Below, piece by piece: positions 3-4,305 of a stretch of 25,925 bases of DNA (position 1 is the first letter of the stretch; each line of letters opens with the position of its first letter). Origin of the DNA: Candidatus Zambryskibacteria bacterium CG_4_9_14_3_um_filter_40_16 (lineage in GTDB: Bacteria > Patescibacteriota > Minisyncoccia > Phycocordibacterales > Zambryskibacteraceae); NCBI GenBank assembly GCA_002791475.1, contig PFXE01000015.1, positions 1 to 25,925 on the forward strand, read 5' to 3'. Both the position numbers and the translations under genes were made by a program. The notes beneath the pieces are model-generated. The model made no database searches. It was not told the origin of the DNA and was given only the letters and a program-made list of their open reading frames with translations.

Positions 3-656
3 TTCAGACTTAGAGATACGGAAGGCATACCGTTTGGCAAGGCGCTTGAATTCGCGGAATTTGCTTCAAGCAAAACGGATGTTAGCCCAGCTCTTATTCT
101 CGCCATTCTTTCTCAAGAATCCGACCTTGGCAAAAACCAAGGGTCTTGCATACTCTCAAGTCTTGAAACCGGAAACGGGGTGGGTAAAAATACCGGCAGG
201 GTCTTTGAACAAGTTATGAAAGCACCGAGAGATACGGTGCCTTTTGAAAATATTACAAAGCGATTAGGGCTAGATTGGACACTGACTCCGGTTTCATGTC
301 CTCCAGGTACGGTGTATAAAGTGGGGCGTGGTTTCGGCGGAGGAATGGGTCCAGCACAATTCATACCATCCACTTGGGAGTTATTTAAAAATAGAATCGG
401 TTCGGCTGTGGGCGTATCCGGGGCTCAAGCAAATCCGTGGAATCCACAGCATGCGTTTGTAGCCACGGGAATTTTTCTATCAGACTTGGGCGCGAGTTCA
501 AATTCTTACACTTCCCAAAGAAATGCGGCTTGTAAATATTATTCCGGCGCTTCGTGTACGGCAGGAAGGCAACCTCCTAATGTATTCTATGGTGATTCGG
601 TACTGAAAAAAGCGGAAGAGATTCAAGCCAATATTGATTTTTTGAAGGGAGTTTAG
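3..656 (+). CDS. Lytic murein transglycosylase (SLT/MltB-like catalytic domain), 5'-partial; the frame is open to the window edge
   Basis: The frame of the 180..656 ORF has no stop back to position 3. It reads ...LILAILSQESDLGKNQGSC (putative catalytic Glu in SQES) and GGMGPAQFIPSTW (lysozyme-like GxxQF motif), then ANPWNPQHAF. Confidence 0.8.
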   Translation, partial: FRLRDTEGIPFGKALEFAEFASSKTDVSPALILAILSQESDLGKNQGSCILSSLETGNGVGKNTGRVFEQVMKAPRDTVPFENITKRLGLDWTLTPVSCPPGTVYKVGRGFGGGMGPAQFIPSTWELFKNRIGSAVGVSGAQANPWNPQHAFVATGIFLSDLGASSNSYTSQRNAACKYYSGASCTAGRQPPNVFYGDSVLKKAEEIQANIDFLKGV

Positions 657-706
657 GATAGTTTTCAGGTGTCAGTTACTAGCTTTCAGAAAAAACAGGA
701 GAGAAG

Positions 707-736
707 AAAAAACACCTTTATTTAAAGGTGTTTTTT
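707..736. terminator. Bidirectional intrinsic terminator-like hairpin
   Basis: AAAAAACACCTTT-ATTT-AAAGGTGTTTTTT: perfect inverted repeat with A and T tracts, 50 nt after the transglycosylase stop. Confidence 0.75.
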
Positions 737-766
737 GATGCTTGGTACACGAAAATGTAAAAATAC

Positions 767-794
767 TTGACAAAATCTGTGAGTTTGCTATAAT
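767..794 (+). promoter_or_regulatory. Consensus sigma70 promoter with extended -10
   Basis: TTGACA (767-772), 16-bp spacer, TG-C-TATAAT (786-794). Predicted start ~801. Confidence 0.85.
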
Positions 795-800
795 GATAAT

Positions 801-963
801 TACATCGGGTAAGGGTCGACCGCAAGGAGGCCCTTCGCCACTAAGTGGTGTTTTGACCCCGATGTATATGTTTTGGTGGCACCCACCCACGGGTGCCACA
901 AACCAATGGCGCCTACGGGTGCCGCCAACCAAACCCCGGCCGCTAGCGCGTGTCGGGGTTTTT
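801..963 (+). ncRNA. Unassigned structured RNA (standalone sRNA or rpmE leader/attenuator)
   Basis: 61% G+C (98/160, hand count) in an AT-rich background. P1 801-809/858-866 closes a 3-way junction (811-835 with GCAA tetraloop; 836-850). Hairpins at 876-899 and 908-922 (UACG loop). Terminal hairpin 931-961 with U tract. Bounded by a promoter and a terminator. Confidence 0.65.
931..963 (+). terminator. Intrinsic terminator ending the structured RNA
   Basis: AAACCCCGGC-CGC-TAGC-GCG-T-GTCGGGGTTT followed by TT. Confidence 0.75.
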
Positions 964-974
964 CATATACAAAT

Positions 975-1002
975 TTGCAAAATTTAATATTCCTGTTATA
1001 TT
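975..1002 (+). promoter_or_regulatory. Putative rpmE promoter
   Basis: TTGCAA (975-980), 16 bp, TG-T-TATATT (994-1002), 9 nt before the ATG. Confidence 0.45.
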
Positions 1003-1011
1003 TATTGAACA

Positions 1012-1242
1012 ATGAAAAAAGAAATTCATCCTCAATATTTTGAAAATGCCAAAGTTACTTGCGCTTGTGGCAATATTTTTACTATAGGATCTACCAAAGA
1101 AAAGATTGAGGTGGAAATTTGTTCTGCTTGCCATCCATTCTATACGGGAAATGAAAAAATATTGGATTCAGCGGGAAGGGTAGAGAAATTTAAAACCAAG
1201 AGAGCAAAAGCCACCAAATCAAAAACCACCCCAAAGAAGTAG
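1012..1242 (+). CDS. rpmE: 50S ribosomal protein L31, zinc-binding (C+) type
   Basis: MKKEIHPQY...CACG...[12 protein letters not shown]...DSAGRVEKF. Confidence 0.97.
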
Positions 1243-1283
1243 ATTGGTTTCGGTCTCTTTCCTTTTTTCTTTGATGGTTTTTT

Positions 1284-2252
1284 ATGGAGGATTTAAACAA
1301 ATACAGAGAAAATCCAAAAACATCCTACTTATTTGGATTGTACGAAAACCTTCTCAAAGAAGAGGAGGCGGTTTCTGTCTTGAATGAAAATGATGCTTCT
1401 ATGAAAGAACTTGTAAACGAAGAGCTGGTAAAAATCAAAGAGCAAAAAGATGTTTTGAAAAAGCAAATGGATAATATTTTGAAATCCGAAGAAATTGAGA
1501 AAGAATTTCCAAACGAAATACTTCTTGAAATAAGGGCTGGTGTTGGAGGAGAAGAAGCGGCATTATTTGCCGAGAAATTGGCTCAAATGTACAAAAAATA
1601 TTCGGAAATTCAAGGTTGGCTGTGGAGTATGATCAACGAATCAAGAAGCGCCCTTGGCGGATATAAAGAAGCAACTTTTGAAATTCACGGTAAAGGGGTT
1701 TATGAAGATATGCGATTTGAGACGGGAGTACACAGAATTCAAAGAGTTCCTGAAACCGAAAAATCCGGCAGAGTGCATACCTCAACCGCGTCGGTTGCGA
1801 TTTTACCCATTAGAAAAAAAACAAAAATAGAAATTAACCCTGTAGATTTGCAGATTGAGTTTTCCAGATCCGGTGGCGCGGGCGGTCAAAATGTAAACAA
1901 GGTGGAAACCGCTGTCCGAATCCTCCACAAACCAAGCGGAATAGATGTCCGGTCAACTTCAGAAAGAAGCCAAGGAGCAAACAAAGAAAAAGCCATGATG
2001 ATATTGATGGCTAAACTGGAAGCGTTGAAAGAAGAAGAAGAGCACAAAAAATTTGCCGACAACAGAAAGAACCAAATAGGCACCGCAGACCGCTCTGAGA
2101 AAATAAGAACATACAATGTTTTGCAGGACAGAGTTACTGACCACAGAATAAAAGAATCGTGGCACAATATCCCGTCAATTTTTGGAGGTCAATTGGAAGA
2201 AATAATAAACGCCCTGAAGGAGGAATCCAAAAATGACTCTTCTATTGCGTGA
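1284..2252 (+). CDS. prfA: Peptide chain release factor 1 (short N-terminal domain)
   Basis: EIRAGVGGEEAALFA, ETGVHRIQRVPETE (PxT, RF1-type), SGGAGGQNVNK (GGQ), EKIRTYN, RVTDHRI. Confidence 0.93.
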   Translation: MEDLNKYRENPKTSYLFGLYENLLKEEEAVSVLNENDASMKELVNEELVKIKEQKDVLKKQMDNILKSEEIEKEFPNEILLEIRAGVGGEEAALFAEKLAQMYKKYSEIQGWLWSMINESRSALGGYKEATFEIHGKGVYEDMRFETGVHRIQRVPETEKSGRVHTSTASVAILPIRKKTKIEINPVDLQIEFSRSGGAGGQNVNKVETAVRILHKPSGIDVRSTSERSQGANKEKAMMILMAKLEALKEEEEHKKFADNRKNQIGTADRSEKIRTYNVLQDRVTDHRIKESWHNIPSIFGGQLEEIINALKEESKNDSSIA

Positions 2253-4112: not shown

Positions 4113-4244
4113 GCCGCCTTAGCTCACGCCTTCGCTCAAATTGCATTTGAGCTTCGGACGTACAAGTAGTAGAACTTTTCACTGCGAGCTTGTGCTTTGA
4201 AGCTTCGATGTAAAATCGGAGCGTAGTAGTGCCGCCTTAGCTCA
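4113..4244 (+). repeat. 14-bp direct repeat of the tRNA-Thr 5' end flanking a structured 104-nt spacer
   Basis: GCCGCCTTAGCTCA at 4113-4126 and 4231-4244; spacer hairpins at 4134-4152, 4160-4195 and 4202-4222. Confidence 0.85.
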
Positions 4245-4305
4245 GTGGTAGAGCAACGCTTTTGTAAAGCGAAGGTCCTCGGTTCAAATCCGAGAGGCGG
4301 CTCCA
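4231..4305 (+). tRNA. tRNA-Thr (anticodon TGT), CCA encoded
   Basis: Acceptor GCCGCCT/AGGCGGC; D arm GCTC/GAGC; anticodon loop TTTGTAA (TGT at 4263-4265); T arm CTCGG-TTCAAAT-CCGAG; ends TCCA. Confidence 0.97.

Follow-up and report, generated by a model that had tools for sequence, protein, structure and literature searches.

A predicted stand-alone noncoding RNA gene beside rpmE in a Zambryskibacteria genome, with a 5′ three-way junction found in two larger RNAs

The rpmE locus and the RNA unit

The window, meaning the entire 25,925-nucleotide stretch of DNA analysed here, comes from a groundwater bacterium and belongs to a 388-kb assembly (G000) that is 65.65% complete and has a G+C content of 0.396; the genomes of its relatives span 0.4–1.1 Mb. 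It opens on the plus strand with the 3′ part of a gene cut by the contig start (3–656). We take this gene to code for a putative lytic-transglycosylase-like protein, a name read from a motif of the GGxMGPAQFIPSTW type. A hairpin with A/T-rich flanks (707–736, plus strand) probably serves as its terminator, and sub-threshold Rfam matches align it with hairpins of the terminator type; it is absent from the output of a simple terminator pattern scan. The next annotated gene on the same strand is rpmE (1012–1242), which codes for ribosomal protein L31 in its four-cysteine form and is present in all 41 family genomes examined. Between the stop of the transglycosylase-like gene at 656 and rpmE, also on the plus strand, sits the RNA unit that is the subject of this report.

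The promoter of the unit (767–794) consists of a −35 box, TTGACA, at 767–772, a 16-nucleotide spacer carrying TG at 786–787, and a −10 box, TATAAT, at 789–794. Thus, all 12 box positions agree with the consensus, and the perfect promoter given in the preliminary description of this DNA is confirmed. Six promoter-like sites occur in positions 400–1600, compared with 2.3 ± 1.3 in shuffled sequences, and this is the only one to score 12 of 12. Among the 27 near-consensus promoters of the 388-kb assembly (no more than one mismatch), it has the highest G+C content in the 120 nucleotides downstream (0.57). The unit closes with an intrinsic terminator (931–963, plus strand), whose stem spans 931–961 around a G/C core at 934–958 and is followed by five U nucleotides at 959–963. 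The stem has the 13 base pairs counted earlier plus one bulge, and the pattern scan skipped this terminator because of that bulge. The predicted transcript therefore runs from about 801 to 963 and measures about 160 nucleotides.

The unit has a G+C content of 0.62, against 0.396 for the genome and 0.28–0.36 for its flanks, in agreement with the 61% in an AT-rich background that had been reported. Open reading frames of 56–86 codons overlap the region, and the longest of those on the plus strand begins at 742, upstream of the promoter. Four overlapping frames gave no Pfam match at E ≤ 1, and reading of the sequence found no start codon at a usable distance after the internal AAGGAGG. A small-protein reading was rejected because the overlapping frames lack a Pfam match at this threshold, and the earlier view that the unit holds no credible reading frame is borne out. 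Elsewhere in the assembly, the stretch G000:C1:3090–3290 is likewise G+C-rich, noncoding and dense in hairpins, with a terminator-like hairpin at its end; it comes after a gene that reads like that for ribosomal protein L7/L12.

A second promoter-like site on the plus strand (975–1002) lies between the terminator and the rpmE start codon. It is composed of TTGCAA, 16 nucleotides that include the TG, and TATATT, and it scores 9 of 12. Its −10 box ends 9 nucleotides before the ATG (997–1014), and the spacing is equal in relatives. A site of the form TTGC..-TGnTATAnT stands just before the rpmE ATG in relatives whether the RNA unit is present or absent, so rpmE appears to be transcribed on its own and to be nearly leaderless. 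A proximal promoter-like site was counted in 33 of the 37 gaps of at least 38 nucleotides, at a lax threshold that makes this count weak by itself. Because the −10 box is so near the ATG, the rpmE mRNA is probably leaderless or nearly so, without a Shine-Dalgarno sequence. The separate rpmE promoter proposed in the preliminary description is thus in place, and the same layout recurs in relatives.

In two metagenome loci, L041 and L073, the sequence agrees with the window at every base through 767 and then passes into an insertion sequence (from L041:3265 and L073:214). This insertion at 767/768 carries two ORFs for transposases of the integrase-core type, 289 and 354 amino acids long. Loose ends at 762 and 767 in sequencing run X8 suggest an insertion with a 6-bp target duplication (762–767) just upstream of the −35 box that leaves TTGACA intact, and an alternative in which the insertion disrupts the −35 box was rejected on the fit of these ends to such a duplication. 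The promoter would remain intact in the insertion variants, and these therefore say nothing on whether the RNA is dispensable; the insertion sequence does explain the breakage of contigs at 767. The far side of L073 enters a gene whose N-terminus reads like that of NusA, which may indicate a rearrangement or a chimeric contig. In contigs from three of four further DNA runs the RNA stretch is without differences, and it thus yields no covariation at the population level. A search for sequencing runs that contain window positions 500–1500 turned up no RNA run.

Fold of the RNA and searches against known families

The stretch 798–965 folds on the plus strand at −88.8 kcal/mol (z = −7.0), and none of 200 shuffled sequences folds as well; the minus strand reaches −75.5 kcal/mol (z = −3.0). 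A 9-bp helix, P1 (801–809/858–866), begins at the predicted transcription start and closes a three-way junction on the plus strand (801–866). Within it, P2 (811–835) has a 2×1 internal loop and a GCAA tetraloop at 822–825, and P3 (836–850) is followed by a seven-nucleotide strand, J3/1 (851–857). Pair probabilities in P1–P3 are 0.73–1.0, and the junction domain folded alone has a z-score of −3.9. Folding thus reproduces each element that had been drawn for this domain, namely a start near 801 at the first base of a 9-bp helix, the GNRA-capped arm and the second arm.

Between the junction and the terminator lies a lineage-specific body (873–928, plus strand) with two competing folds 3.3 kcal/mol apart. 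One is a long nested hairpin (−35.3 kcal/mol) and the other a pair of hairpins at 876–899 and 907–924 (−32.0 kcal/mol). The UNCG hairpin that had been described corresponds to 907–924, which does present a UACG loop at 914–917, but it forms only in the second-best of these folds.

Searching the window with Rfam 15 at gathering score gave no match over the RNA. The sole match in the window is an ordinary tRNA gene (4231–4302, 70.9 bits). When the threshold was relaxed to E ≤ 10 over 650–1100, 13 sub-threshold matches appeared, the best being to P15 (23.3 bits against a cut-off of 70), which covers the hairpins and terminator only. No L31-leader or riboswitch model matched in 650–1100 even at this threshold. 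The covariance-model search that had been proposed therefore returned no family at gathering score, and the earlier failure to match the RNA by eye to SRP RNA, 6S, tmRNA, RNase P RNA or riboswitches holds at the same level. A full-text word search of a limited literature collection met no description of such RNAs in CPR bacteria (Patescibacteria).

The signal recognition particle deserves separate treatment. The SRP RNA model RF00169 matched neither the window's own genome (0/1) nor any of the 41 family genomes, with 12 of 14 control genomes positive, and the large SRP RNA model RF01854 was silent in five genomes, with seven of 14 controls positive. The protein partners appear to be missing as well. 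The M domain of Ffh (PF02978) was found in 0 of the 41 family genomes, and neither ffh (TIGR00959) nor ftsY in five genomes that are at least 99% complete. Across 151 genomes of the order there was no full-length match to an SRP54-type GTPase, only P-loop fragments in 30 of them, and a strong match occurred in one of 201 genomes of the phylum. Searches in all frames for such a GTPase and for the DT[AS]GR motif found neither in a complete 622,806-bp genome of the order nor in the window's own 65.65%-complete assembly. Because Ffh and FtsY were not found, an SRP RNA is not expected in this lineage. One paper states that many CPR bacteria are without two SRP subunits (PMC8080830), and the loss of SRP in CPR is, to that extent, already known in outline.

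Other universal RNAs were sought in the same way. An RNase P RNA candidate of full model length lies on another contig of the same genome (G000:C14:735–1082), scoring 49.2 bits, below the Rfam cut-off of 100 bits for the bacterial type-A model. In relatives the RNase P RNA scores 54–87 bits, with no match in two of five genomes; on its sequence, the RNase P RNA of the family is unusually divergent. The tmRNA gene was found elsewhere in the genome in each of five relatives, and ARAGORN predicted no tmRNA gene at 16 loci. The 6S model RF00013 found no match in the window, in its own genome or in five relatives, and this silence is weak evidence because the model was positive in only five of 14 control genomes. 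The fold itself is more informative, in that the 5′ end pairs with 858–866 and the 3′ part forms a separate hairpin and the terminator, instead of a rod with a central bubble. A 6S identity of the RNA thus appears unlikely.

The 5′ domain in relatives and the variable slot beside rpmE

A BLAST search with the RNA found it in none of 60 relatives, leaving its own genome as the only match (1/61). A covariance model built from the single sequence 801–880 was more productive. It matched a metagenome locus, L050, with 28.1 bits (E = 1.7e-4 over 232 kb) and, among 86 family genomes, the locus L076 of genome G028 with 26.5 bits. Model R2, rebuilt with these sequences, gives G028 80.4 bits by construction. 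With R2 the domain is found in two of 86 family genomes including the window's own, that is, in one of 85 others, and in none of 150 other genomes of the order. A third locus (L077, genome G088), matched by model R1 with 23.5 bits, was dropped since it consists only of a P2-like hairpin, located in a 5′ UTR, and lacks P1, and R2 misses it. A pattern scan of 185,579 species genomes returned 33 stretches, mostly from G+C-rich organisms. Only one of these (L089) passes R2, and it repeats the L076 sequence over the aligned 75 nucleotides, so it adds no new instance. The same scan of viral contigs gave no match.

In both relatives the three-way junction heads a much larger G+C-rich RNA that ends in a terminator, one of about 630 nucleotides (L050:3337–3966) and one of about 640 (L076:~1501–2135). 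In the window, L050 and L076 alike, P1 begins 5–7 nucleotides past the TGnTATAAT box. The three domain sequences each fold alone into the same three helices, with z-scores of −3.9 (window), −2.8 and −3.7. In their alignment 92.6% of cells are paired, and 10 of 23 base pairs have changed on both sides (four in P1, three in P2 and three in P3), values reached by none of 500 shuffles, with 0–2 such pairs in slid controls; the alignment holds three sequences only and was fitted to model and structure, which inflates the pair counts. The covariation check in relatives that had been suggested is therefore positive in that compensatory changes are present, but it rests on three sequences and a model-fitted alignment.

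Conservation within the domain is concentrated at the tip of P2, which is nearly invariant (C-G/C-A-C-C-G-N-A-A-G-G-A-G-G-C, columns 17–32 of alignment A4). The junction strands behave differently. J3/1 measures 7, 8 and 2 nucleotides in the three sequences, which have no letter of it in common, and a single U makes up J1/2. With junction strands so poorly conserved, no ligand pocket or fixed tertiary core of the kind expected of a riboswitch is evident. Because the P2 tip is invariant and the junction strands vary, the domain is more suggestive of a contact surface on P2 than of a ligand pocket in the junction. Mimicry of rRNA by P2 was also considered. Three primer-type motifs find no rRNA in the assembly, and in the complete genome of the order the P2-like word is absent from the rRNA region.

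Behind the junction the three RNAs part company. Local alignment of the window body with the bodies of L050 and L076 gives scores within the shuffle range, and the latter two give no nhmmer match to each other at E ≤ 0.01. In both L050 and L076 the junction is followed not by an expression platform but by about 570 nucleotides of structured RNA. The G028 copy of the junction stands ahead of the transglycosylase-like gene, at a distance of about 3 kb from rpmE.

The gap that holds the RNA unit is itself variable. Of 30 family loci, 26 have the transglycosylase-like gene ahead of rpmE, and the distance between the two genes ranges from 25 to 1384 nucleotides. We pooled these 26 with 18 metagenome loci, which are those of an initial 35 that hold both genes after L048 and L053 were dropped as duplicates of L047 and L045. 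Half of the 44 gaps are short (no more than 145 nucleotides) and have no strong promoter. The other 22 measure at least 204 nucleotides, and in 15 of them a promoter with no more than two mismatches lies more than 60 nucleotides upstream of rpmE. In most such gaps this promoter leads into a G+C-rich stretch (0.46–0.62) and a hairpin with a T-run. Thus, relatives carry in this slot other promoter-bounded and mostly terminator-bounded G+C-rich units, or nothing. Even members of one genus differ in whether they have a unit and in its type.

No Rfam match was found among the slot RNAs of relatives that were scanned. They do fall into groups of related sequences. The body of the G028 RNA and the slot RNA of G002 are homologous (E = 1e-40), and so are the slot RNAs of G002 and G014 (E = 7e-11); those of G002 and G014 have other 5′ ends. 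BLAST of the 641-nucleotide G028 RNA against 86 family genomes found G028 and G002 only, with no match in the window's own genome. Further groups in other genera comprise L004, L045 and L008, L023–L026, and L009 with L015. The large slot RNAs are not RNase P RNA, because G014 and G023 have that RNA elsewhere. The G028 RNA contains an internal repeat of about 58 nucleotides (about 1583–1640 and 1743–1800 of L076), and a similar module can be read in the slot RNAs of L005, L004 and L008. In addition, the roughly 250 nucleotides before rpmE in L005, L019 and L050 contain a MITE-like element whose terminal inverted repeats are long. It lies between the RNA unit and rpmE, and the L005 and L050 copies match each other with an nhmmer E of 5e-31.

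Readings of the RNA and comparison with known systems

What the analysis establishes is a unit that runs from promoter to terminator, lacks a coding frame and bears, in the sequence of its 5′ domain, the marks of structural constraint. We consider it likely that positions ~801–963 are a stand-alone ncRNA gene of about 160 nucleotides with its own promoter and terminator, whose predicted product would be stable and probably abundant. We are also fairly confident that it is a real gene of this kind and belongs to a fast-evolving, modular set. The proposal of an unassigned stand-alone sRNA made in the preliminary description thus gains support from the promoter, the fold, the terminator, the missing Rfam match and the separate rpmE promoter. 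To it are now added a covarying 5′ module common to two large RNAs and a documented variable slot. The strong selection that the earlier account took to be implied is not demonstrated, as the RNA occurs in very few lineages and the turnover of the slot is quick. This narrow distribution and quick turnover also fit weak constraint.

Several other readings were weighed. A cis-acting rpmE leader, either a riboswitch or an L31-binding attenuator with the three-way junction as its sensor and 931–963 as a regulated terminator, would account for a unit that immediately precedes rpmE on the same strand, for the usual attenuator layout of a structured domain followed by a terminator, and for a middle region whose two folds are so close in energy. 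However, the promoter at 975–1002 intervenes and its counterparts recur with and without the RNA unit, the L31-leader and riboswitch models are silent at E ≤ 10, and the G028 junction lies about 3 kb away, beyond the upstream gene. Moreover, about 570 nucleotides of RNA, and no expression platform, follow the junction in G028 and L050, the junction strands are not conserved, and by eye the middle region was not seen to pair with the 5′ arm of the terminator. We regard this explanation as improbable and reject it on the intervening promoter and the non-adjacent G028 junction. A better, if still rather unlikely, alternative is that the unit is the transcribed remnant of an RNA of the ~630-nucleotide L050/L076 type that has lost its body and retains little or no function. 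The window RNA is four times shorter than the 630–640-nucleotide RNAs of relatives with the same junction, its body has no detectable relative, and the region is prone to rearrangement, as the insertion sequence at 767/768 and the MITE-like inserts of L005, L019 and L050 indicate. Against decay stand the perfect promoter and intact terminator, P1–P3 preserved with pair probabilities of 0.73–1.0, and a G+C content of 62% in a 39.6% genome, where a decaying sequence would be expected to drift under the usual A/T mutation pressure.

The same variation of unit type and presence within genera, together with the use of this gap by the insertion sequence and the MITE-like inserts, might instead point to the cargo or scar of a mobile element that targets the gap. 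We think this very improbable, given that the unit is single-copy in the assembly, with only chance words of 12–13 nucleotides elsewhere, that comparison with empty sites revealed no flanking direct repeats by eye, that viral contigs gave no matches, and that in the window the unit has neither an integrase nor a transposase attached to it. The least probable reading of all is a very divergent SRP, 6S, RNase P or tmRNA. Consensus promoter, high G+C content and a size typical of stable RNAs would suit it, and both SRP RNA (0/41 family genomes) and 6S (own genome and five relatives) are unaccounted for. Yet no Ffh or FtsY partner was found that would lead one to expect an SRP RNA, the RNase P RNA candidate is on another contig (C14:735–1082), tmRNA was located elsewhere in all five relatives with none predicted by ARAGORN at the locus, and the ends do not form a 6S rod, even if the silence of the 6S model (five of 14 controls positive) counts for little.

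If the unit is a stand-alone RNA gene, as we favor, its product would be expected to act in trans and not on rpmE. The three-way junction may be a portable 5′ module whose terminal helix P1 shields the 5′ end of the RNA, while the terminator hairpin would close the 3′ end. Helices that close both ends of an RNA are a usual protection against exonucleases. If a protein or another RNA binds, the tip of P2 would be the likeliest point of contact. The whole molecule, whose body is specific to the lineage, might then serve as a decoy or as the RNA component of a small ribonucleoprotein. That the P2 tip serves as a handle for a protein is, however, a doubtful proposition that we advance tentatively. 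More speculative still, the 66-nucleotide junction might be a portable 5′ handle on unrelated bodies (about 95 nucleotides here, about 570 in L050 and G028). It would then be the hallmark of a class of RNAs, modular, highly expressed and as yet undescribed, in Patescibacteria that lack SRP. These RNAs would occupy the syntenic rpmE slot and evolve by the swapping and resizing of modules, with the P2 tip recruiting a common partner. On that view, their quick turnover could reflect an arms-race role, for example in contact with a host cell or with phages.

The genomes of Patescibacteria (CPR) measure about 0.4–1 Mb and leave little room for non-essential DNA. Despite this small size, the family keeps a slot beside rpmE with consensus promoters and G+C-rich RNAs that have no described match and vary between genera. 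The concrete element to emerge from it is a small three-way junction module with compensatory changes, common to a 160-nucleotide RNA and two of about 630 nucleotides. If this module binds a defined partner, it would offer a handle on RNAs predicted to be abundant in a large and mostly uncultured branch of bacteria. If it binds none, the RNA is one more orphan sRNA candidate.

Several known systems share features with the RNA. Like the SRP (4.5S) RNA, it is small, G+C-rich and presumably stable, with a GNRA-capped hairpin that bears a small internal loop, but it matches neither RF00169 nor RF01854 and its lineage shows no Ffh or FtsY. Small size, transcription from its own promoter, predicted abundance and quick sequence evolution are traits shared with 6S RNA. 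In contrast to 6S, it has a 5′ three-way junction and a hairpin in place of an end-to-end rod with a central bubble, it lacks a match to RF00013, and the homologues of its 5′ domain belong to RNAs of about 630 nucleotides. Rfam also holds leader families for ribosomal protein L31 (rpmE), and these resemble the present case in that rpmE is immediately preceded by a structured RNA on its own strand. They differ in that the unit has no match to them at E ≤ 10, ends in a terminator followed by a separate rpmE promoter, and has a relative of its junction in G028 that is not adjacent to rpmE.

The nearest parallels are the orphan structured ncRNAs that appear in bacterial genomes as G+C-rich intergenic islands, such as raiA, OLE, ROOL, GOLLD and a number of unnamed candidates. 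The identification of orphan structured ncRNAs from G+C-rich intergenic islands is the subject of a method paper (PMC8632094). As in raiA, OLE, ROOL and GOLLD, a dedicated promoter and terminator, a G+C content far above that of the genome, dense conserved pairing and the lack of a reading frame are found together at this locus, and at 630–640 nucleotides the L050 and L076 RNAs are within the size range of the large ‘ornate’ RNAs. Unlike those four, the RNA in the window has no Rfam match, is only about 160 nucleotides long and has been found in a handful of genomes. A further difference is the apparent exchange of modules, by which the same 5′ three-way junction stands at the head of bodies that are otherwise unrelated.
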